Source: Candidatus Nomurabacteria bacterium (GTDB taxonomy: Bacteria; Patescibacteriota; Minisyncoccia; Phycocordibacterales; UBA9973). From it: 64,000 nucleotides of DNA. The position numbers and the translations under genes are program-made. How positions within the stretch are numbered: position 1 is the stretch's first letter; every line of letters begins with the position of its first letter. Below are positions 5,776-18,387 of the stretch, piece after piece. The stretch lies in assembly GCA_016199805.1 (NCBI GenBank), contig JACQGC010000005.1:6019-70018 (forward strand), written 5' to 3'. The notes beneath the pieces are model-generated. The model searched no databases and was not told the origin of the DNA. It saw only the letters and a list, made by a program, of their open reading frames with translations.

Positions 5776-5829
5776 TTTCCCGGGCACAACTGTGGATAAC
5801 TGTTTTTCATAAATATTTAATATTTCCAA

Positions 5830-6861
5830 CTAAAAATTAGCGGTAGCGGTATAGGTAATCACTCCTCCATAATTGCCGGCCGAAGTCATCGCGGCTATGT
5901 TTGCAAGATAATAAGCGTTGATGGTTTCAAGAGGTGTGGGATTGCTCTTGGTCACGATAAGCTGATTGGAACCAGTGGTGAATTTCCAATTTCTATTTGC
6001 GGGAACTACGTTATGGTCATAAGAGCTTGTAATGGTGGCACCGTTGTCGGCAGAAAAAGCCAGAGCAAATTGTTTAGTACTTGGTAATCCGTCCGGGTCA
6101 TTTGTAATAGTCGCTTCGGTAAGAACTTCTGGCCCCGCAAAAGCGGTACCATTGTATGAGATAGAATAGCCTGATGTTGCATTAGTAGAAACTTGTAAGC
6201 TGTTTCCACTCGCATCTGTGCTACTACCCGAAGTATCATTGGTTGCAAAACGGGCCCCCGATGGAGTGACGACACCAAAGCCGACAGTATTAGTGGAAAT
6301 GGAAAAAGAAATGACTTGAGGTATGGTAACCGTTTGTTCACTTGAAAGGGTAAGTAAATTGCTGTTATTATCCAATGTTCCAACTACAAAAAAATAATCT
6401 CCGGCACTCAAATTTGTATAAGTATAATTTAAACTAAGGCCAACCGGAGTATAAGCATAAGGACCACCTGAAACCGTAGCGATGCCAACCTTATAACTGG
6501 CTACATTGTAGCCGAGGCCCGCTGTCGTCGGCGTCCAAGTTAAATCTACATTGGAACCATTCAATATAGCCGAGAGTGTCCCCTTTGTAACATATGGATA
6601 ATACAAAAGACCGGACCGCTCTATAAAACTGGTCGAGGATGACTGTCCTGCGCCAAACAGATTTTCACTTGAATACAATTTGAAACTGCCGGAACTTTCA
6701 TATCCACCACCACCACTTACCACCGGATCCCTGATGATAAAACTGGGACTGGTCAAATCAGAAGCATGAATAAAATACATCGGCAAAAGAACACCCAGGG
6801 TTATAGAAAATATTATTTTTAATTTTTTATTTTTTATTTGCGGCATTGTATTTTTATTCAA
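5830..6861 (-). CDS. Secreted beta-repeat protein, paralogue B. Its C-terminus ends with YTATANF.
   Basis: It has a signal/TM segment. It is homologous to the 4658..5689 product throughout the C-terminal 200 aa. Confidence 0.55.
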   Translation of the reverse strand: MNKNTMPQIKNKKLKIIFSITLGVLLPMYFIHASDLTSPSFIIRDPVVSGGGGYESSGSFKLYSSENLFGAGQSSSTSFIERSGLLYYPYVTKGTLSAILNGSNVDLTWTPTTAGLGYNVASYKVGIATVSGGPYAYTPVGLSLNYTYTNLSAGDYFFVVGTLDNNSNLLTLSSEQTVTIPQVISFSISTNTVGFGVVTPSGARFATNDTSGSSTDASGNSLQVSTNATSGYSISYNGTAFAGPEVLTEATITNDPDGLPSTKQFALAFSADNGATITSSYDHNVVPANRNWKFTTGSNQLIVTKSNPTPLETINAYYLANIAAMTSAGNYGGVITYTATANF

Positions 6862-7895: not shown

Positions 7896-10800
7896 TCAAA
7901 AACTGGGTGTCTCCACGGGAACGCTTGCGGGATTGTCGGCTGGAGCGGTATCGTCTGGAACACTACCAGATACAACATTATCTGGAGTTGGAGTTAACGC
8001 AGGGTCTTGGGTTGGTAGAATGGGTTCTGGGGTTGGAAGTGAAAACGGCACCAAAGATGGGCTGGAAATTTTACTGCTAAAAGTCTTGGCGCTCTTTACC
8101 GCCAAAGCAATCCAGCTGAAACTGATGTTTTGTTTTGCTGTGTCTTTCAAAGTGATAGTAAAACCTTTTTCTGATTTATTAGTTACCAGATACTGCACAT
8201 TGTCTGCAAATAAACTATTTGTCGCTTCAGTTTGAGCATTTTTAATTGACTGAATTAGGGAAGCATCAGTTTCAGTATTTAGATTTTCCAACTGTGGGTC
8301 GGCATCGAGAGTAATAGTCGTGTTCACAATGGGTTGTTCTAAATATTCTTTATCAAAAACTATATCTACGGATTGATCTCCTTTATTTATTTTTGCAAAA
8401 CCGGCCGTATCTGTCGTAAAGTATGGTCTGCCAAAAAATACAGTATCACTCATAAACATCACCGCATCCTTGCCGGAGCTGATAGTATCCACCGTCAAAC
8501 CATTGGCAAATATTTGTGGTGTAATTATTTCCATTGAGGCAGCCACTCGGTCGGTAAAAATCTCGGACAAGTTTTGCATATTGGTTTTTTGATTCCGCAC
8601 CTTAATAAGGAAATCCAAGATTCTGGACTCTACTGTTGCGGGAGTATTGGAAAGAGTTGAAGTCAAACCGTCGGAAACAACCGGAGAAAGAGCCAAGGAA
8701 TCTGTGCTACTTCCATCAGCAGTTGATGGAGACGAAAGCCCATTTTGTGCTGTAGCTGTTACAGCATCCAAATCTTCCTGCATCAACATCTCAATAGATG
8801 CTCCGCTGTAATTTGCCAAATTTACAAACACTACCAATGTTCCGCATTTTGTATTTGGCAATTGACCCAAGCCCATAGATGGACAATCTTCCAATTTATT
8901 TGTGTCCATATTTTCCAGAGCCGTGCCTATTACCCTGCCGGCCTGTGTCGCCCGCATAGCATAACCCGGAATGCTGGAAGAAGTCAGATAATCCCCTGCT
9001 TTTATCGGGCCATTTTCCGTACTGAATCTTACCGGCACACGGCCAACGAGCGCTATCGGCACAGAATCCACAGTCTTTGAACCGGCCACAAAACCTGGAG
9101 CGGTGGAAACGACTCCGACTAAAGTATTTTGATATTGTCCCGTGGAACGCAAGACCCCTTGTGAATTGTTTGGGTCTACCATCACCACTTCTCCTTTGGT
9201 CAGACTTTCGGTTGATGTATAATTTTCCGCCAAATCGGCGCCACCGGAAAAGAATCCACCGTTGGTTGACGACATGATATTTCCGTCGGATGTCACACGC
9301 AAAATACTGAGCCCATTATTTTGTAAATTCATAAGGTCCATCCCATTTGTAATCTGGTACGAATTTACAGTCGGTAAAGATATATTACGATAACTATATG
9401 TTAAACCACTAGAAGAATTATAAACACCATTTAAGTTGAGACCGAATGTAGGAAAATCACGACGGAAATTTATTTCCACTTGAGCCCATTGTTCACCTCC
9501 GGCGTTTCCGATAGACCCTCCAGGTGAGCTTATACTATTCCAAGTAGCCACACCGAGAGCGGTCTGGGTCGCAGCCACTCGCGCTTCCATACGCACAAAC
9601 TGGTCCGGAGTTTGTTGCCAATCAAGTGTAGAATTTGAAGCAAGTGCCGGCACATTCATTTCTTCAGAAAGATATTGTCCATCAGCATACCAACCAGCAT
9701 CGTAAATATTGATAGCCTTGGACCCAGATGATCCTCCGAAAAGAGTAATAAATTTTCCATCTGGCCTTTGAAAAGAAAGGGCACCGTCACCCACGCCACC
9801 ACCGAGATACTGACCAGTGGTTGGGTCTGTCACCGAATCAGCAAAAGTTGTAATAACATTGTCAGCAATAGTTCCAACTAAGAAATATGGAGAGGTGTTA
9901 TTTACTCCACCAGCTATTGTTGTTCTATAAATATTACGTGCTGTTGTTCCGGTAGGACCAATAGTAACAGCAGTAAGACTTTCTTGTCCAAGCGTTGTAA
10001 GAGTACATGACTGTGTAGCAGATGGAGCAGAAAGTGGTGATTCAACACCGCCAATAACGTAAGTATATCTCCAGAAGTGTACACCGGTATTACATAAGTT
10101 AGATCCACCAGAAGCTGGAGCAGAAGAAGTAGGAGCTGGTGGCGCAGTATTAAACATTGTAGGTCCTACAGCCACAGTACCGACAGGAGCACCAACAGCA
10201 GAAGTTGCGCCACCCCAAGGGAAATAAATCTCAGTGAGCACATCATTGTTTAGAGCCAAGTTTCCTCCAACAATTAAAAACGTACCATCAGCTCTCGGAA
10301 TAACATGAGAGCCTCTTCCTAGCATTGCAGGAAAAGTTACACCCGCTGCTTCTGTACCGTTGTAAGGATTGACTATACCTGACAGAGTACCACGAGCATT
10401 TGCTGTAGCTTCTCCTCTTATTATTATCCAATACCCGTCTTGTCTTTGAAATGCGAATCCTCCAGATCCATTAGCTCCGCCAAGAACAGCTCCAAGAAAA
10501 AATGTTTTGGTGTTTGCATTATAAGTCATAGTAGCAGTAGATACAGTTCCAACAGCAGACCCTGCTATAACTTTATACATGTTGTTCATAGAACCCTGAA
10601 GCGGTATAGCAAACCCTCCTAAATTTGTAGCTGCTGTCTGTAAAGGACCCGCTGTCATAGTATTGCGAACTGGATCATAAAGAGATGTAGAAGTAGCGCC
10701 AGCACCAGGTAAAATAGTATAAGTGCCATCAACATTAAGAATCGTAAATGCACCACCAGATGGAGCAGTACCAACTATGGATGGACCGAGAGTAAAACGT

Positions 10801-13800
10801 GAACCAGAGGGGGCATATTGATCATAAATATTTGTCACAGCTGACCCTCCACCAAGCACTACTAAATATTTACCGTTGGGACGTCTAATAGCAAAACCTC
10901 CTGCACCTACTGTAGCAGTAGGCTTATCTCCAGTGGCTGTCTGGTTTATAAATGTTGATGTTGTAGAATCATATAGCTCAGCAGATCCTCCCGCTACTCC
11001 ACCATTTACCACCAAGAATGTTTTATCGTCACGAGCAATAACAAAAGTACCATAACCAGCAAGATTATTTAGAAACTGATGATCATTACCAAATGATCCC
11101 ATATAAAATCCTAAACCTGTGGCACCTCCAACTTGAGTCGTTGGCGTAATACGACCATAAGGAAGTGTGAGTTGATTATTGATTGATTCAACACGAGCAG
11201 ATTCACCGCGAGAAAGCATCGGACCGGAAGGCGTGAGCTGCGCAAATGCCGCACCGAGCGAAACATCCGTCGCTCCGTCAACATAAGAAGTTGTAGAGTT
11301 ATCGTTTAAAGTTGTAACTAAAAATGGAGTATCGGTGACAGCAAGCGCCGCGGCTGTACGATAAATTTTTCTGGCAGTTGTACCGGACGGACCAATTGGA
11401 ATATTTGTCAGAGTAACTTTATCTGTGCCACCAGCGCAAGAGGCAGTAGCACTAGCTCCTAGTTGCGACTCTGCTCCGTTGATAATAAAAGTAACAAACC
11501 AAAAATGGGCTCCAATAGTACAAGTACCTCCGCCCGCTGACTCTGTGGCTGTGGGCGCCACAGGCACTGTCGCCGCTACTGCGGTGTAGCTATCCGGAGT
11601 GCTAAAATCAAATCCTAATTTTTTAAATACGGCAGAATTGTCAATAGAATAATCAAACAAGGTTGGCGTCGTAAAATCATAACGAAGTACTGTCGTATTG
11701 TTCCCCGTCCATGTGCCACGATCATCTGCCAGCTTTTTCGGCATAGCGCGATTGAAGTGTACGGCAACCTTCACGCAATTTGCTCCGGACACAGCACGAA
11801 TATTATCTCCAGGGTTTTGAATTTCTTGCCACGAAGCGGCGGCGAGGGGTCCCGAACAACCGGAAGAATTCACGGCAGTTTTTACAAAAAATTGCATAGC
11901 TTTAAATGCGGTATTGGTGACTCCATTTCTGGCCGCCGCATACACAGCTTCCAGCTGAGCCGTCCAACGCAAAGTAGAACCAGTGCTAATATATGAATTT
12001 GAAATATCTTCCGACGTATACCAAGTCGTAGCCGGAGTGATAGAATATGTGGCACCAAGTGATGCATCAACTGTTGCATCGGAACAAGATGTCGTGGTGT
12101 TATCAGCAATACTACAAGAACCTGAACTTATTAATTTTGGCAATCCTGTATCCCCTGCTGTTGTGCGATAAATCTTGCGCGCTGTTGTAGCCGTACCACC
12201 TGGGCCAATTGGAATACCGGAGAGTGCTACCGTTCCGTTAGCTGCCGTACATGCGACGATGTTTGATTTCTGGCTCAATTCGGATTCCACTCCATTTGTT
12301 ACAAATGTCGTGTAATAAGAATGCAGTCCAGCATCACAGCCCGCACCAGATGAAGGAGTACCAGCAACCGGTGCCACAGGAAATGGATCATACATAGGCA
12401 TATTTGTACTGAAATTATTTGTGGCTTGGCTCGCATTACCGGTGATAATCTGCCATGTTCCATCTGTGCGCATTATTGAATGAGCACCAGCACCAATCGT
12501 AGACGGAGCAGTGCCACCAGTGGAAGTATAGGTCGCAAATGAGTCCGTGTCTTGACTATAAATCCACGCATTGGCCGTAGCCCCTCCACCTAAAATTAAA
12601 AACTTTCCATTTTGAAGCGGGATAGCGTGAGCCCCATCTCCCAAGGCAACCGTCGGGCCGTTGTTGGGACGGCAAGTCATAGTATTGGCTGACGGATCAT
12701 AAACAGCCGAAGAATTTATTCTTGAAAGAATGACATATTTACCATCTTGACGTTTAAGAGCCACCGAACCAAGACTATTTATTCCGCAAGTATTTGTAGC
12801 TTGGTTTCCATCAAGACTTGGCCCAGCGGAAGTAAATGCTCCTATTGTGGCATTTCCTGAATATGGATTATAAATATTTGTATTTGAAGTAGAACCTCCA
12901 TTTACTATGAGCGCACGTCCATCGGGCATGGGAAGTACGAGTGCTCCTGCTGCCCAAACACCTGCCGAAGCAGGTGGACCAAGTCCAAAAGTATTTGCCA
13001 CAGGATCAAATATTTGTGTGGTACCTACAGAAGTAGATGCGCCAATAGTCACGAGATATTTCCCATCTGGACGTTTATATGCTACAGTACCCGCCCCAGT
13101 GATGGCAATAGTCGTTCCAGGCCCAAGAGAACTTGGAACAGTACCCATCGTATCAATGTTAGTTGTAGTAGTTGTTGCACCAGTAGCTGTTCCACAGATA
13201 AGAGTATATTTACCGTCTGGTCTTGGAAGAGCTATTGATCCTACACCAACACCAGCAGTAGTTGCAGTATTACAAATAATTGATTGTGATGCAGTCATTG
13301 CACCTGTAACCGAATCATAAAGAGTGGTTGATGTCGCCCCTCCACCATGTACTATCAAGTATCTACCATTCGGACGCGTAAGAGCCAAGGCACCTGCACC
13401 CACGGCGACTGATGTCGTGGGTTGAGATGATGTCGTTATCGTACCCGTACCAGAGTTTGCCGGAATACCATCCGCCAGCTGTAAGCGTCCGCCAGTATTT
13501 AAAAGATTTGAACCTATTGTTCCCAAAGAAAAATCCGTAGCAGCAGTACGAACGATAGAAGAATCCGAACCATTGACGGTAAGTCCCCCATTTGAACCAA
13601 CGGTGAATCTGTCGGTACCGTTTTGATTTATATCAATAGCGTTGCCGGTGCCGGTGCTGTTGATGGACAGCCCAGCTCCGGTGCCAGCATTGGAGATAGT
13701 CAGTGCGTCAACAGCCCCGGCAGAAAGTTGGTCAACCTTCAGTGCATAGTTGGCAGTGGTTCCACCCGATACCGGATTTTGAAAAATCACCGAACCATCG

Positions 13801-14687
13801 GTGGAGCTTAAGGCAATCGTCACATTACCCCCATCAGTATCATTGTTGTAAGTTGTTTGTAAATCCGAACTGCCGCCGCCTGCCCCGCAACCGGCATCAG
13901 TCGTATTACATAAAACTTTTGTCGTACCGTTTTCATTCACTTTGTATTTATTGGCGCTGGAATCATACCAGATATCTCCAGCCGCTGCGCCGGAGGTGCC
14001 CGCCACGCCAGTCTTTAAGAAATCTCCGGTAGCAATTGTGGTTCTTCCAGAAGCGGAATCTAAGGTCAAACCACCAACGCCACCAGAAGAAACAGTCACT
14101 GCGCCGACTCCAGTGTAGGACAAAGCCGAAAGAAGTCCTGGAATAGTCAAAGCTCCTGAACTAAGAACTGGAATTTGATTACCGGTAGCGGATTGAGATG
14201 GAGTAAACCCCCCCACGGTGCCGGAATTGATAGAATACCCTGAAGAAACCACTTGTGGACGCGGAGTGAGAGATTCAAATGTAACACCGACGCAAGAACT
14301 GGCCACTTGAGCTGCCACTTGCACATCTACATATATAGTATTATTACTTTGAAAATCATAATCAAGCGTGTCTCCCCCGGTTGACACATCCCCAATCCCC
14401 GCGTTAAAAACTCCTTCACGAGTGAGGATGGTCATCGTTGACGGAGCACCCGTGGGCCAAACTTTGGACCCTGCCGTTGATGCATCATATAAAGAAAACT
14501 TATAACAATAGTTTGTGCCACTCGTGCCTCCGAGCAAAGCCCCGCTGGAATTTAAAAGTCTGCCTTGAAAACTAATAATTTTGGGTACCCCTGGCGCAGC
14601 ATAGGCAAAATTTATAAAAAAAGATACGACAAAAAAGCACGTTAAAATCCGTAAAATATTTTTATGTTTAGGATTGTTTTTTCCCAT
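7896..14687 (-). CDS. Giant (2263 aa) secreted surface protein. It has many Kelch/beta-propeller-like blades and a domain repeated four times.
   Basis: It has a signal peptide. It has at least 11 blade-like repeats of the form (R/K)PDGKY...GG. An internal roughly 60-aa domain containing TARKIYRT is repeated four times. It is a single uninterrupted 6.8-kb ORF. Confidence 0.7.
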
Positions 14688-15255: not shown

Positions 15256-15283
15256 TTGACAGAAATATAAAAAGTGTTATACT
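15256..15283 (+). promoter_or_regulatory. Near-consensus sigma70-like promoter motif (TTGACA-N16-TATACT). It points antisense into the 3' end of the reverse transcriptase gene.
   Basis: TTGACA sits at 15256-15261 and TATACT at 15278-15283. No plus-strand gene follows for about 1 kb. Confidence 0.25.
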
Positions 15284-15302: not shown

Positions 15303-16352
15303 TTATTCACTAACCCACAAATAAAAATAATTTTTTATTTTTATAGAAAATTTGTAAGCATCTGTGTGTGAAAGCACTCCTAGGTATGATGCTAAGGTCG
15401 CTTTGATTTTGTCTTTGCCAACTTCCCCTCTTCGGTATGCTTCAATTTTATCTTCAAATTTTCTGATAATCCTCTTTTTCGTTCTTTTACGAATGAGAGT
15501 ATGGGTAGAAAAGATAATATTCCCCAAAAAATCTATGCCCTTGATATAACTTAATATCTCAACTTTTTCCGGATGTAAATGTAAAAATAAAGAATCTCGT
15601 AAAAATATATTTACGGAGTCTAAAATATGGAGTAAATAATCTCTATCTCTTGAAACAATCACAAAATCGTCAGTGTAGCGCGCATAATAACGAACTTTGA
15701 GTTTGTGTTTAATAAATTGGTCAAATTCATTCATATAGATATTCGCAAAAATCTGCGAGGTGAGATTGCCTATAGGCACACCCTTTCTTCCCAATAAATC
15801 TGACGCAGAACTTGTATAACTCTCGATTATGTTTTCCAGAAGCCAAATTATATTCGGATCTTTAATCTTCTTATTTAAGATTGCCAACAAAATATCGTGG
15901 TCAATTGAATCAAAAAACTTACGCACGTCACACTTGAGCACATAGCATGTCTTTGTATTGTTTCTGCTTTCTTTTCGCAACATACCTCGCAAAGTTTCGA
16001 TCCCCTTATGAGTCCCCTTGCCTATTCGGCAAGAAAACGAGTTGGAAATAAATGTTGGTTCAAATATTGGGTTGAGTATATTAAAAATTGCATGGTGGAG
16101 GACTCGGTCTCTGACGGTGGCTTTATGTATATGCCTCAATTTCGGATCTGATATATAAAATCCTTCGTACTCGCCGTGTTTATAGCTTTTGTTTTTTAAA
16201 TCTCGAGATAGTTTGAAAATATTACTCTCAAGCTCACTCTCAAACATCAATACATCTATTTTCGATCCCTTTCCGTGTTTAAATTCTTTCCACGCTAAAA
16301 ACAAAGCCTCGGGTTGAACAATCTTATTAAATAAATCTTTGTGAATAATCAT
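15303..16352 (-). CDS. Reverse transcriptase of the diversity-generating retroelement (DGR) type.
   Basis: RT motifs are present: the LFxxIxxxxAxxAWKEFKHGKGSK N-terminus, the IGNLTSQIFANIYMNEFDQF motif 4 with the DGR-specific SQ, and the YARYTDDFVI YxDD box. It is about 350 aa and has no maturase or endonuclease domain. The start was chosen at the internal Met (16352). Confidence 0.85.
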   Translation of the reverse strand: MIIHKDLFNKIVQPEALFLAWKEFKHGKGSKIDVLMFESELESNIFKLSRDLKNKSYKHGEYEGFYISDPKLRHIHKATVRDRVLHHAIFNILNPIFEPTFISNSFSCRIGKGTHKGIETLRGMLRKESRNNTKTCYVLKCDVRKFFDSIDHDILLAILNKKIKDPNIIWLLENIIESYTSSASDLLGRKGVPIGNLTSQIFANIYMNEFDQFIKHKLKVRYYARYTDDFVIVSRDRDYLLHILDSVNIFLRDSLFLHLHPEKVEILSYIKGIDFLGNIIFSTHTLIRKRTKKRIIRKFEDKIEAYRRGEVGKDKIKATLASYLGVLSHTDAYKFSIKIKNYFYLWVSE

Positions 16353-16706
16353 ATGAATCAAAATGATGTGCCAGTACTTAATAAATCGTATGAATTGTAT
16401 AAGTTGTTTCACGAATATCGCAAGGTTGTTCCAAAGCAAGACAGATTTACCATATATGAACGAAGTGAGCATGTAATGCTGGGGATTATAGAACTTCTGC
16501 TTGAAGCGAGTTACGGCGGCAAAGAAAGAAAGCTAGTCACCCTAGAAAAAGCCAGCGTCAAACTCAATGTGCTCCGATTCCTGATTCGCATAATGAAAGA
16601 AACAAAAACATTTGATATGAAAAAATACATTTCACTGGAACTACTTGTTGATGAAATCGGACGAATGATTGGAGGATGGATACGTTCGCTCAATCTCAAT
16701 AAATAG
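16353..16706 (+). CDS. avd: Avd-like accessory variability determinant, a four-helix-bundle protein of the 23S rRNA IVS protein family.
   Basis: It is about 118 aa. The helical pattern YELYKLFHEY...PKQDRFTIYERSEHVMLGIIE...LEKASVKLNVLRFLIRIMKE...ISLELLVDEIGRMIGGWIRSL is typical of the Avd/IVS family. It is divergent from the RT gene, and the two start codons are back-to-back (CAT|ATG). Confidence 0.7.
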   Translation: MNQNDVPVLNKSYELYKLFHEYRKVVPKQDRFTIYERSEHVMLGIIELLLEASYGGKERKLVTLEKASVKLNVLRFLIRIMKETKTFDMKKYISLELLVDEIGRMIGGWIRSLNLNK

Positions 16707-16710
16707 CTTC

Positions 16711-16750
16711 ACACAAAAGGTATCCAAAAAGGATACCTTTTGTGTTTTAC
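16711..16750 (+). terminator. Strong hairpin (15-bp stem, AAAAA loop) followed by TTTT. It is the likely avd terminator. It also lies in the spacer between TR and RT on the other strand.
   Basis: ACACAAAAGGTATCC-AAAAA-GGATACCTTTTGTGT is followed by TTTAC, directly after the avd stop codon. Confidence 0.55.
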
Positions 16751-16762
16751 AAAAAGAGACTT

Positions 16763-16891
16763 CGGGAGGAAGCCGGACGCCGAGCCAAAGTTGTCGTTGG
16801 CATTGTCGACCGTGTTCGTGTCAAACTTGAGCTTGCCGTCGTTCCAGTTGAGGTACGGAGCGTGATCGAAGCGAACAGAGGAATCCGGATT
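16763..16891 (-). repeat. DGR template repeat (TR).
   Basis: This 129-bp segment is near-identical to 17300..17428. The two differ at 18 positions, and all 18 are adenines in this copy (read on the minus strand). In the target frame this copy contains multiple AAC/AAT codons. Confidence 0.85.
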
Positions 16892-17186
16892 CTGCCTTTA
16901 TCCATCTATGGCACCGGAACTTGAAAGCTTTGCAAAGCAAAATGCAATCTTGCTCCTGAATTTAACTTCACAACACTTATTTTTTAAGTAAGTTTGTGTT
17001 GGGTAAAGACAAGCAGTATCTCTTCATAGTAACGCTCTTTTTGCAACCGTAGTCGCAAAAATTCTGGCTAGTTTCTTTGTGAAAAGAAAGAGTTCGGCGA
17101 TGGCAATCCATAAACTGCCATACATGAGCTTAGACTCAAGGTTAAGTATATTAAAAGTAAATTTAAAAATCAATATGAAATGAAAT

Positions 17187-17225
17187 CAGGGCTACCCACA
17201 TTGTGTTGTGGATAACCCTGATATT
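17187..17225 (-). terminator. Hairpin about 70 nt downstream of the DGR target gene stop. It has T-rich flanks on both sides. It is a candidate terminator or homing-associated structure.
   Basis: CAGGGCTACCCACATTGTGTTGTGGATAACCCTG is an imperfect palindrome. It has a T-run on the plus side and a T-rich tail on the minus side. Confidence 0.35.
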
Positions 17226-17290
17226 TTTTGCCGCGAACTCAAGAATCAAATGAAAGAGTTCAAAAAATTCAAGTATTCGAAGCGATAGAA

Positions 17291-18184
17291 TCACTTCTGC
17301 GGGAGGAAGCCGGACGCCGAGCCAAAGTAGCCGAAGGCACCGCCGACCGCGCCCGTGCCAAACTTGAGCATGCCGTCGAGCCAGTGGAGGTACGGAGCGA
17401 GACCGAAGCGAACAGAGGAAGCCGGATTATCAAACTCTTCGCCGGGCAAGTCCATGTGAAGTTGCTCCCAGCGAACGAAACGCTCCGGATGAGTGAGTAT
17501 GATAGCACCTCCAATAACGGAAGTGGCGCCGAACTCATTGCGTACGAAGACTTCGTGTGCGCGCCGAGTGGAACGTCCGCGGTGACGCATTCCGAGCTGG
17601 AGAGCCGCGACGAGGATATCGCCATTGCCCTGTTGTTCGGAGAGCGTTTCGATTGCCATTGCCGTCCGCGAATGAACGCGTAAACGGTCCATTTGACTCG
17701 CGCGGTAATTGTAGAACGAGCGCGACGCGGCAATTTTCGAGAGAACGGCGCCAGTTGCAATGGCGCGCGGAAAAGCGAACCAACCCACAAACGGCAACGC
17801 GTCTTCCGGAACGAACGACTTCAGCTCTGGTCGGATTTGTGCATACGCCAGCGCAGAGTCTGGATTGAGGTTAAAAACCTCCGCCAGGTATAAAATCTGG
17901 TCACAGATGGACTTCGGACCCTTGTACTCTGGCGGGTACGTGTAGGAGGATGCGACCTCCTCGCTTGCGTACTGGTTCGGGCTGCCGTATTTACGCACGA
18001 GATCTCGGACGAAGTCGCGAACGTCGTTCATGGCTCCCGTGCCGTTGTCGATGAACCGAACGCCACCCTCGTACGAGTCGAGATATTTTTCGACCACGAG
18101 AGGAACCTGCGCTTGAATCATTCCTGTAATATGCTCACGCTGTTCCGGCGACGCCGGGGCGGCTTCTGACAACATCGTTTTCAT
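17291..18184 (-). CDS. DGR target protein (297 aa). It has no signal peptide. The variable repeat encodes its C-terminal about 43 residues, a probable C-type-lectin / FGE-like variable fold.
   Basis: An AAGGAG RBS sits 6 nt before the ATG. The gene is GC-rich (about 58%), in contrast to the genome. The C-terminus ...NPASSVRFGLAPYLHWLDGMLKFGTGAVGGAFGYFGSASGFLPQK is encoded by the VR. The stop codon lies 7 nt past the VR. Confidence 0.75.
   Translation of the reverse strand: MKTMLSEAAPASPEQREHITGMIQAQVPLVVEKYLDSYEGGVRFIDNGTGAMNDVRDFVRDLVRKYGSPNQYASEEVASSYTYPPEYKGPKSICDQILYLAEVFNLNPDSALAYAQIRPELKSFVPEDALPFVGWFAFPRAIATGAVLSKIAASRSFYNYRASQMDRLRVHSRTAMAIETLSEQQGNGDILVAALQLGMRHRGRSTRRAHEVFVRNEFGATSVIGGAIILTHPERFVRWEQLHMDLPGEEFDNPASSVRFGLAPYLHWLDGMLKFGTGAVGGAFGYFGSASGFLPQK
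17300..17428 (-). repeat. DGR variable repeat (VR) at the 3' end of the target gene.
   Basis: It is the 129-bp cognate of the TR. All 18 mismatches correspond to A in the TR. The last 27 nt (minus sense) contain no adenine and are identical between the two copies, making this an IMH-like GC-rich end. Confidence 0.85.
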
Positions 18185-18295: not shown

Positions 18296-18387
18296 GTGAA
18301 TTCTTGTTAAAGAACCTTAAAAATACTGTTGTATAGTATAACATAAAAAACAGCCACGTGTCAATGTTTTTTGGATATTGTGGCCAA

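Follow-up and report, generated by a model that had tools for sequence, protein, structure and literature searches.

Evidence for a complete chromosomal diversity-generating retroelement in Candidatus Nomurabacteria, with a conserved structured RNA predicted around its template repeat

A 64,000-nt stretch of DNA from a Candidatus Nomurabacteria metagenome-assembled genome (MAG; the whole stretch is called the window here, and all coordinates are window positions) carries what is very probably a complete chromosomal diversity-generating retroelement (DGR) of the type known to abound among ultra-small bacteria of the candidate phyla radiation (CPR), with architecture B3. DGRs use a reverse transcriptase to rewrite one end of a protein at residues whose codons contain adenine. 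Every defining DGR component that we tested is present, i.e., a template repeat (TR), a variable repeat (VR), a reverse transcriptase (RT), an Avd protein, a target with a C-type-lectin fold, and repeat ends resembling the initiation of mutagenic homing site (IMH), in support of the original DGR prediction made from the sequence alone. The DGR itself is one more of a class counted in thousands, and its value is that of a clean, complete reference locus with intact parts. The less ordinary feature of this otherwise known kind of DGR is its apparently permuted template RNA, which is absent from Rfam 15: the spacer between VR and TR appears to be a conserved, structured non-coding RNA gene that contains TR.

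Repeats, genes and gene order

The direct repeats at 16763-16891 (TR) and 17300-17428 (VR) are 129 nt each, are offset by 537 nt and differ at 18 positions, exactly as had been claimed. All 18 mismatches coincide with a plus-strand T of the 16763 copy, i.e., with an adenine of the minus-strand TR, and the plus-strand changes from TR to VR (T>C nine times, T>A six times and T>G three times) agree with the earlier tabulation. The gapless alignment extends 3 nt further, to 16760/17297 (132 nt, 16760-16891 against 17297-17428), and takes in a 19th mismatch at 16762, likewise at a TR adenine. The minus-strand TR has 30 adenines in these 132 nt, and 19 of 19 mismatches fall on them (hypergeometric p = 1.3e-15), which rules out chance or plain duplication as the source of the repeats. 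Mutagenesis was considered for the mismatch at 16762 and rejected: this site reads CCGAAG in TR and CCGCAG in VR in every related locus showing the junction, with C in every VR shown and A in every TR shown. Position 16762 is hence read as a fixed boundary of TR/VR homology, and 16763 and 17300 are better repeat limits than 16760/17297.

The adenines of TR are also placed where they alter protein sequence. Over 132 nt, 12 stand at codon position 1, 18 at position 2 and none at position 3, and all 15 codons that differ between TR and VR change the amino acid. Seven codons of TR are AAC or AAT, and the reading N-W-N-D-G-K...D-T-N-T-V-D-N-A-N-D-N previously given for TR is correct in the target frame. 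The 28 adenines of the 129-nt TR are spread over 19 codons, so TR permits 19 variable codons and ~3e16 protein variants. The last 27 nt of both repeats are identical and free of adenine, as predicted; this 27-mer (TTTGGCTCGGCGTCCGGCTTCCTCCCG) has exactly two copies in the window, one at each repeat end (0 expected), and immediately downstream of it the copies diverge, into CAG plus a stop codon in VR and into AAGUCUCU in TR. Such 3' ends fit the IMH/IMH* pair of a DGR. Searches of the window for further VRs or remote targets of TR (27-mer with ≤3 mismatches, blastn-short and tblastn with the target) returned TR and VR only.

The RT assignment is supported by its PDB match and by its motifs. 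The protein matches Pfam RVT_1 (E 1.2e-26), and among solved structures its nearest relative is the bRT of the Bordetella phage (8ub7_A, one of the bRT-Avd-RNA cryo-EM entries; E 6.9e-45 over residues 4-331), compared with E 2.5e-21 for the best group II intron RT and about 1e-19 to 1e-5 or weaker for retron and defence RTs. The IGNLTSQ motif 4 and the YxDD box named in the original prediction are both in place (Table 1), which together with the bRT match suggests an RT of the DGR type. An ordinary partial gene duplication next to an RT of another class (group II intron, retron or Abi/UG/DRT defence) has next to no probability and is already refuted by the adenine pattern and the RT match. The top NCBIfam model is indeed a group II intron RT/maturase, at 160 bits and far under its cut-off of 300, and Drt and retron models give weak sub-threshold matches. 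Nonetheless, all mismatches lie on the adenines of one copy, the RT is 24 orders of magnitude nearer bRT than group II RTs, Avd is present, Rfam detects no group II intron or retron RNA in the window, and the cassette with A-biased repeats recurs in dozens of loci.

The avd product matches Pfam bAvd (63.7 bits, cut-off 40; E 2.6e-17) and has weak structure matches to 4dwl (Bbp7) and 8ub7_B (Avd). Avd, the accessory variability determinant, is not shared by all DGRs. Its gene does not lie where it was thought to: TR had been placed between the RT and avd genes, and it is instead avd, on the plus strand, that sits between RT and TR. The plus-strand order is RT(-), avd(+), TR(-), the non-coding RNA domain(-) and VR/target(-). 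The avd ATG (16353, +) abuts the RT ATG (16352, -), giving CAT and ATG back to back at 16350-16355 without any base between them, so each promoter must be inside the other gene or further off. A weak RT promoter-like site was seen inside avd at 16394-16423 (-).

VR was correctly described as the last ~43 residues of a 297-amino-acid (aa) open reading frame (ORF) on the RT strand. The AlphaFold model of this target (pLDDT 92.9) ends in a C-type-lectin-like fold bearing VR, and this C-terminal domain matches C-type-lectin folds that include the DGR targets TvpA and Mtd. At the sequence level the target has no match in Pfam, NCBIfam or PDB, and neither a signal peptide nor a hydrophobic N-terminal stretch was seen in its 297 residues. 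Its homologues number 732, are ~300 aa long, share a conserved core with a hypervariable C-terminus and, wherever an organism is named, come from CPR bacteria. The GenBank protein MBI3888457.1 (Ca. Nomurabacteria) is identical to the target, and the sole other member of its cluster is the same sequence. The target also stands out in base composition and is far richer in GC than its retroelement and genome, with 57% GC against 34% in RT and 37% in avd; in 17 loci (L001-L078) the target averages 59%, RT 37% and the locus 43%. This excess extends to synonymous sites outside VR (GC at third codon positions 0.63, against 0.32-0.47 in adjoining genes).

Architecture B3, i.e., TR-(avd)-RT with avd reversed, accounts for 90% of CPR DGRs and is found almost nowhere else (Wu et al. 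2018, PMC5758913). CPR DGRs form clade 2, with targets that lack recognizable domains (Roux et al. 2021, PMC8144416). The core order in the window (TR 16891-16763 on the minus strand, avd 16353-16706 on the plus strand, RT 16352-15303 on the minus strand) and the CPR host fit B3, and because its organization matches that of Wu et al., the element is best read as a further example of this known kind. As in published CPR DGRs, a target with a C-terminal VR is followed by a same-strand TR, an inverted avd and RT; the target lacks a recognizable domain, signal peptide or transmembrane segment; and TR adenines stand at codon positions 1-2. The protein-coding anatomy is thus no different from theirs. 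The arrangement is also conserved among relatives. At the loci of the closest target homologues (L001, L003 and L004) avd and RT are divergent, and TR and VR again differ with a bias to A, and among GTDB species representatives ~38 of 80 target-family loci have RT and avd within 4 kb, always head-to-head and divergent. The gap between the two genes is 0-50 nt, with avd inverted, in all related loci. TR in the GTDB loci usually lies between target and avd, and a few loci have the entire TR-(avd)-RT module upstream of the target in inverted orientation.

Three findings weigh against a complete and working element. The avd product scores 77.4 bits with NCBIfam DivGenRetAVD, slightly below the cut-off of 80, such that the predicted Avd identity holds with Pfam and misses with NCBIfam by a small margin. 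A GC-rich inverted repeat directly 3' of IMH is absent, the nearest hairpin being that at 17185-17222, ~70 nt after the stop codon, with 7 GC pairs among its 16; such a repeat follows IMH in 34% of DGRs only and is hence not a defining feature (Wu et al. 2018, PMC5758913). Finally, the sole second assembly (L086, a Logan contig from SRR12113408) shows 100% identity along 9 kb that include VR, and because its DNA is identical it is not an independent sample.

The last of these bears on whether the DGR is decayed or silent and its VR differences are fossils of past homing, which we consider unlikely. Both assemblies of the population share the same VR, and plainly decayed relatives (L011, L027 and L083) exist beside target-family genes. 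About half of the target-family genes among the GTDB species representatives (L006-L085) lack any RT, avd or TR within 4 kb, and would be either remote targets or non-diversified paralogues. In the window, by contrast, the RT, avd and target ORFs are intact, YTDD and IGNLTSQ are present, and the RNA helices, the elements S and F (described below) and the adenine-free end are intact as well, the RNA scoring 133 bits against the family model (with this sequence in the training set). Drift after inactivation should have added some non-A mismatches between TR and VR, and there are none. We therefore favor a complete DGR, which may still be active.

Beyond the VR stop codon, the stretch 17223-17290 (-) is conserved in loci whose targets are only ~45% identical, and it contains repeated CTTGA/TTTTGA motifs (CTTGAA..TCTTTTGA..TTGATTCTTGA). 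One arm of the hairpin that follows (GGGTTATCC(ACA)) is conserved among relatives (block GGGtTaTCC...agCcct, 30 loci) and in the window holds a perfect DnaA-box-like TTATCCACA. In two-target loci, a GC-rich hairpin of the GNRA type lies ~85 nt past each VR. The conserved post-VR stretch and these hairpins may be recipient-site (IMH-like) homing signals.

A conserved structured RNA between the repeats

The spacer between VR and TR is ~400 nt long. In an alignment of 30 such spacers it comprises a post-stop block, a terminator-like hairpin, a -10-like hexamer and ~250 conserved nt up to TR. The loci other than L014, 29 of 30, have this hexamer (TATACT, TATAAT, TACAAT or TAGAAT) aligned 6-8 nt before the start of the conserved RNA. 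For 25 loci, the RNAalifold prediction has 49 base pairs, with compensatory double changes in 36. When the first 141 nt were aligned separately, pairing in the four main helices was 97-99.6% and none of 500 shuffles attained the covariation observed; helix cells are paired in 94% of cases, versus 80% in shuffles and 40-55% with partners slid. The whole 439-nt RNA of the window folds 5 standard deviations better than shuffled sequences.

A covariance model of this domain (R1), whose training alignment includes the window sequence, gives a single match in the window (16998-17138, minus strand; 133 bits for this training sequence), scores 100-146 bits in 17 GTDB loci outside the training set and has zero matches in a control of 0.89 Mb of unrelated viral contigs. 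The exact 14-mer GGAGATACTGCTTG was set aside as a candidate, its 120 loci in viral contigs all being chance occurrences, of which 100 were tested, gave no covariance-model match and so were of use as a negative control only. Among 80 metagenome loci fetched by RT alone, R1 matches 45; of the 54 whose upstream flank is 900 nt or longer, it matches 41. The matches are almost always on the RT strand and lie 650-800 nt upstream from where RT starts. Several of the R1-positive loci have no target-family homologue; they have A-biased VR/TR pairs of their own, located in unrelated proteins that range from 99 to 649 aa and include one P-loop NTPase. The R1 RNA family thus accompanies RT-Avd over at least five unrelated target families, i.e., the RNA goes with RT-Avd and TR, not with the target. 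In one relative (L004), the unit of RNA and TR and the RT gene are on opposite strands, which together with the conserved -10 element argues for a separate transcription unit for RNA and TR.

Searches with Rfam 15 gave no match at gathering score, in the window and in 16 related loci alike. Of the Rfam RT motifs, RT-16 (RF03019) alone came up, at 16894-17011 with 17.9 bits (gathering score 50; E 5.6) and was rejected; we take this match as chance because it was not reproduced in the eight relatives searched at the E-value threshold.

The 3' part of the predicted structure encloses TR (Table 1). Helix L, of 12 bp, has compensatory double changes in 10 of its 12 pairs and ends 1 nt before the TR/VR homology; its two strands are separated by ~100 nt that comprise inner hairpins and a conserved single-stranded stretch rich in A, AAUAAAAUUCAG. 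The element S, which directly precedes the 5' strand of helix L, is complementary to F, the conserved 3' flank of TR. This complementarity, between 17016-17027 and 16749-16760, amounts to 11/12 in the window, as read from the sequence, and over 25 loci the ten pairs are 80.6% paired, with double changes in 6/10. In distant loci S sequences differ widely, and the complement still stands just before the terminal stem-loop. For example, L247 has AGAAAGACAAGAC with GUCUUGUCUUUCU (-19.1 kcal/mol) and L224 has GAUUUUAGAUGCUA with GUAGCCUCUAAAAUC; L262, L214, L230 and L208 are likewise complementary, and a sister subgroup has AAAUGAAGA with UCUUCAUUU. We consider these divergent variants that keep complementarity to be stronger evidence for the putative S:F pairing than the covariation over 25 loci. 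For 12 loci of the sister subgroup, unguided RNAalifold also predicts an S:F pairing that spans TR together with a 12-bp helix L (79 pairs, 46 compensatory). In both groups the U of GAUAC in S is opposite C, and the S:F duplex runs a few pairs into the 3' end of TR. Past F, the site of the stem-loop 16711-16745 is taken by a hairpin of variable sequence in relatives (median fold z-score -4.4, 28 loci); stem-loops just downstream of TR were reported in 207 of 278 DGRs (Handa et al.).

The motif CCGAA(C/G)UCU(C/U)UC occurs twice in the RNA, internally as B1 (17081-17097) and at the 3' end of TR as F (16746-16766). B1 and F are both complementary to S, and the two pairings are therefore mutually exclusive and possibly form a conformational switch. 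With S:B1 and S:F both about 80% paired, the sequences are compatible with such a switch and with a fixed structure, and the alternative S:B1 pairing is possible.

Table 1. Features of the retroelement locus and of its predicted RNA (window positions)
Feature	Position	Strand	Remarks
DGR reverse transcriptase	15303-16352	-	349 aa from MIIHKDLF; IGNLTSQ at residue 194, YTDD at 226
avd	16353-16706	+	117 aa; Pfam bAvd; head-to-head with RT, zero intergenic bases
avd stop codon	16706	+ (opposite strand)	beyond the 15-bp stem-loop
Stem-loop	16745-16711	.	15 bp, between F and avd stop; form of a bidirectional terminator; candidate Avd-binding stem-loop
Element F (AAG-UCUCUUUUUGUAAA; consensus GAAGUCUCUCCUCAA)	16762-16746	-	conserved TR 3' flank; absent after VR (CAG + stop)
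TR	16763-16891	-	28 adenines/19 codons; IMH*-like A-free end 16763-16789
Helix L, 3' strand (GGAUAAAGGCAG)	16903-16892	-	pairs with 17001-17012
Structured RNA 5' domain	16892-17138	-	RNAalifold and covariance model; helices H1, P1, P3, P4, inner hairpins, long-range L
Helix L, 5' strand	17012-17001	-	directly follows S
Element S (AUGAAGAGAUACUGCUUG)	17027-17010	-	near-invariant core GAUACUGCUUG; complementary to F and B1
P4	17061-17052 / 17047-17038	-	RNA 5' domain
P3	17070-17067 / 17033-17030	-	RNA 5' domain
B1 (CCGAACUCUUUCUUUUC)	17097-17081	-	internal near-copy of F, complementary to S
Hairpin P1	17123-17113 / 17108-17099	-	RNA 5' domain
Helix H1	17130-17128 / 17098-17096	-	RNA 5' domain
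DGR RNA promoter-like site	17145-17173	-	TTGATT-17 nt-TATACT (-10 at 17145-17150); presumed transcription start
Hairpin	17185-17222	-	16 bp then T-run, ~70 nt past target stop; terminator-like (terminator scan)
VR	17300-17428	-	last ~43 target codons; 18 differences from TR, all at TR adenines
IMH-like VR end	17300-17326	-	27 nt without adenine, same as TR end
Target gene	17291-18184	-	297 aa, GenBank MBI3888457.1 'hypothetical protein HY311_01545'; N-terminal helical part and C-terminal C-type-lectin-like fold
Promoter-like site before target	18335-18364	-	TTGACA-18 nt-TATACT, TG before -10; 11/12 consensus; presumed function

Comparison with the Bordetella phage RNA and a proposed mechanism

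To our knowledge, what biochemistry and structures have taught about DGR reverse transcription all stems from a single phage element, in which the essential RNA lies downstream of TR. Because the inverted avd occupies the downstream space in CPR DGRs, the site of their priming and RT-binding RNA had been unclear. The covarying RNA domain described here offers defined helices, a candidate primer strand and a candidate stop helix coinciding with the TR boundary, which makes priming in CPR DGRs testable.

In the DGR of Bordetella phage BPP-1 (mtd-avd-TR-brt), cDNA synthesis requires 20 nt upstream of TR and 140 nt of spacer (Sp) downstream of it. Sp 3-33 is an Avd-binding stem-loop right after TR, and Sp 82-139 binds RT. 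The template:primer duplex consists of Sp 53-56 and TR 118-121, A56 being the priming nucleotide, and the duplex called the "cPRT stop" consists of Sp 59-70 and a segment upstream of TR (Handa et al. 2018, PMC6182149; bioRxiv 10.1101/2023.10.23.563531). Handa et al. sought such elements in other DGRs, including those of CPR bacteria, using 40 nt upstream and 100 nt downstream of TR. Elements of the Bordetella type were not found downstream of TR in the window, where only ~15 nt and one stem-loop precede the antisense avd stop codon.

The two elements are nonetheless alike in many respects, including full-length RT homology, an Avd protein, A-specific mutagenesis, a VR within a C-terminal fold of the C-type-lectin kind, adenine-free IMH/IMH* ends, a stem-loop just 3' of TR, and one strand that pairs with the TR 3' end and then with a segment upstream of TR. 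S and the 5' strand of helix L have the same polarity and adjacency as Bordetella Sp 53-70. The two elements differ in that the one in the window is chromosomal in a CPR bacterium rather than phage-borne, has a small soluble protein and not a tail fibre as its target, and is without a GC-rich inverted repeat right after IMH. In addition, its two-duplex strand and a further ~200 nt of structure lie upstream of TR, in a permuted order.

We propose that TR is transcribed within a non-coding RNA of ~430 nt that would start from its own promoter (about 17145-17173) and end at the stem-loop 16711-16745. A complex of RT and Avd would bind this RNA, reverse-transcribe TR and misincorporate opposite template adenines, and the cDNA would then replace the homologous VR at the 3' end of the target gene, with homing anchored by the adenine-free 27-nt end. 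As a result, as many as 19 codons would be recoded, giving ~3e16 variants of the ligand-binding face of the C-type-lectin-like domain in a soluble 297-aa protein. In the RNA, one continuous strand would serve two roles, S pairing with F and the following 5' strand of helix L pairing with the segment just upstream of TR, so that TR is looped out between two adjoining duplexes. S:F and helix L would be the counterparts of the Bordetella template:primer and 'cPRT stop' duplexes, respectively. The strand that forms both duplexes would lie 5' rather than 3' of TR because the antisense avd fills the 3' side. Were the Bordetella RNA closed into a circle and opened between the Avd-binding stem-loop and the primer strand, it would have the CPR order, i.e., primer, stop strand, further structure, stop partner, TR and stem-loop. 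By this analogy, B3 DGRs would use a circularly permuted DGR RNA encoded by a stand-alone gene with its own promoter and terminator, and the priming nucleotide would lie in the near-invariant GAUAC of S, whose U-C mismatch with F is conserved; we regard the chances for and against this proposal as evenly balanced. Priming in cis from S, like the binding of RT-Avd, is suggested here from the likeness to the Bordetella RNA.

On the other side of the balance, the promoters and terminator of the DGR are consensus matches only, and S is also complementary to B1 (82% paired), so that S:F is not the sole possible pairing. Published accounts of CPR B3 DGRs (Wu et al.; Roux clade 2) are without a structured RNA domain of ~250 nt between VR and TR, a promoter or a conserved TR 3' flank; no such RNA was found in Wu et al., where no spacer, flanking region or RNA structure is mentioned, or in the other papers searched, which did not cover Paul et al. 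2017, a study that may note it.

A different role for the RNA upstream of TR is rather unlikely in our assessment. Instead of being part of the RT machinery, this RNA could serve as a regulatory leader or as a small RNA in its own right, acting, e.g., as a terminator/antiterminator through S:B1 versus S:F, with primer and RT-binding elements elsewhere, e.g., in RNA antisense to avd. The mutually exclusive pairing of S with B1 or F has the logic of a switch, F immediately precedes a terminator-like stem-loop, and the sequence downstream of that stem-loop is conserved, although avd coding explains this conservation. A regulatory role accounts less well for the fixed position of the RNA relative to TR and RT across unrelated targets, for the end of helix L just where the TR/VR homology starts, and for an S-L strand that reproduces the polarity and adjacency of two functional Bordetella RNA duplexes. 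Moreover, with RT on the other strand in L004, read-through into antisense avd is not general. We accordingly prefer an RNA that takes part in reverse transcription of TR.

Structured RNAs adjoining bacterial RT genes are known from the Rfam RT motifs RT-1 to RT-19 (Weinberg et al. 2017), of which RT-10 is the Sp region of BPP-1, and the authors speculated that more RT motifs are DGR-linked. The RNA of the window resembles these motifs in its setting, whereas none of them reaches its gathering score in the window. It is also like the msr-msd RNA of retrons, a stand-alone structured RNA beside an RT that carries the template, looped out between paired flanks; bearing the priming nucleotide is a further feature of the retron RNA. 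Retrons differ in their far more distant RTs and in having no VR/TR pair, Avd or homing into a target gene. As a practical matter, the R1 covariance model would locate TRs and DGRs on short CPR contigs independently of VR/TR detection.

Related loci and neighbouring sequences

The hosts of the related loci are Parcubacteria/Patescibacteria MAGs. A few MAGs are titled 'Gammaproteobacteria' or 'Saccharibacteria', and these are probably mislabelled bins. Some genomes contain several copies of the target family, e.g., Spechtbacteria SB0662_bin_43 (L022, L037, L051 and L060). DGRs with multiple targets were also seen: L009, L038, L043, L046 and L054 have two tandem target paralogues, each with a VR matching the one TR.

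The decayed relatives retain different parts of the cassette. In L011 (5040-5350), where TR, avd and the first 200 residues of RT have been deleted, the RNA 5' domain (120 bits) is fused to an RT fragment of 33 residues, while L027 (3540-3770) and L083 (2879-3673) keep the RNA domain and partial RTs beside target-family genes. In L004, a 46-nt direct repeat (5814-5859 and 9155-9200, 96% identical; CTTGACACTATCTAAATAATATGATAGG.TTTGGCAT.ATCTATAT) of promoter-like sequence flanks the whole DGR cassette and could be a duplicated promoter or the trace of a cassette insertion. In L066 (8459-8580, plus strand), a LOOT RNA (RF03000, 83 bits) unrelated to the DGR occurs ~1.5 kb downstream of it.

Just beyond the RT stop codon of the window, a strong promoter-like site at 15256-15283 (+) (TTGACA-16 nt-TATACT, 11/12, with TG) points into the cassette, antisense to RT and toward avd. 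It mirrors the promoter-like site of the target at 18335-18364 (-), which likewise ends in GTTATACT. This site could be the avd promoter, implying an antisense-RT leader of 1 kb, or a chance match. Two genes downstream of RT, a 2263-aa ORF (7896-14687, minus strand) is rich in Gly, Thr and Ser, has an N-terminal hydrophobic segment and repeats the motifs 'PDGKY/RPDGK' and 'ARKIYRT'; it probably encodes a giant surface protein.

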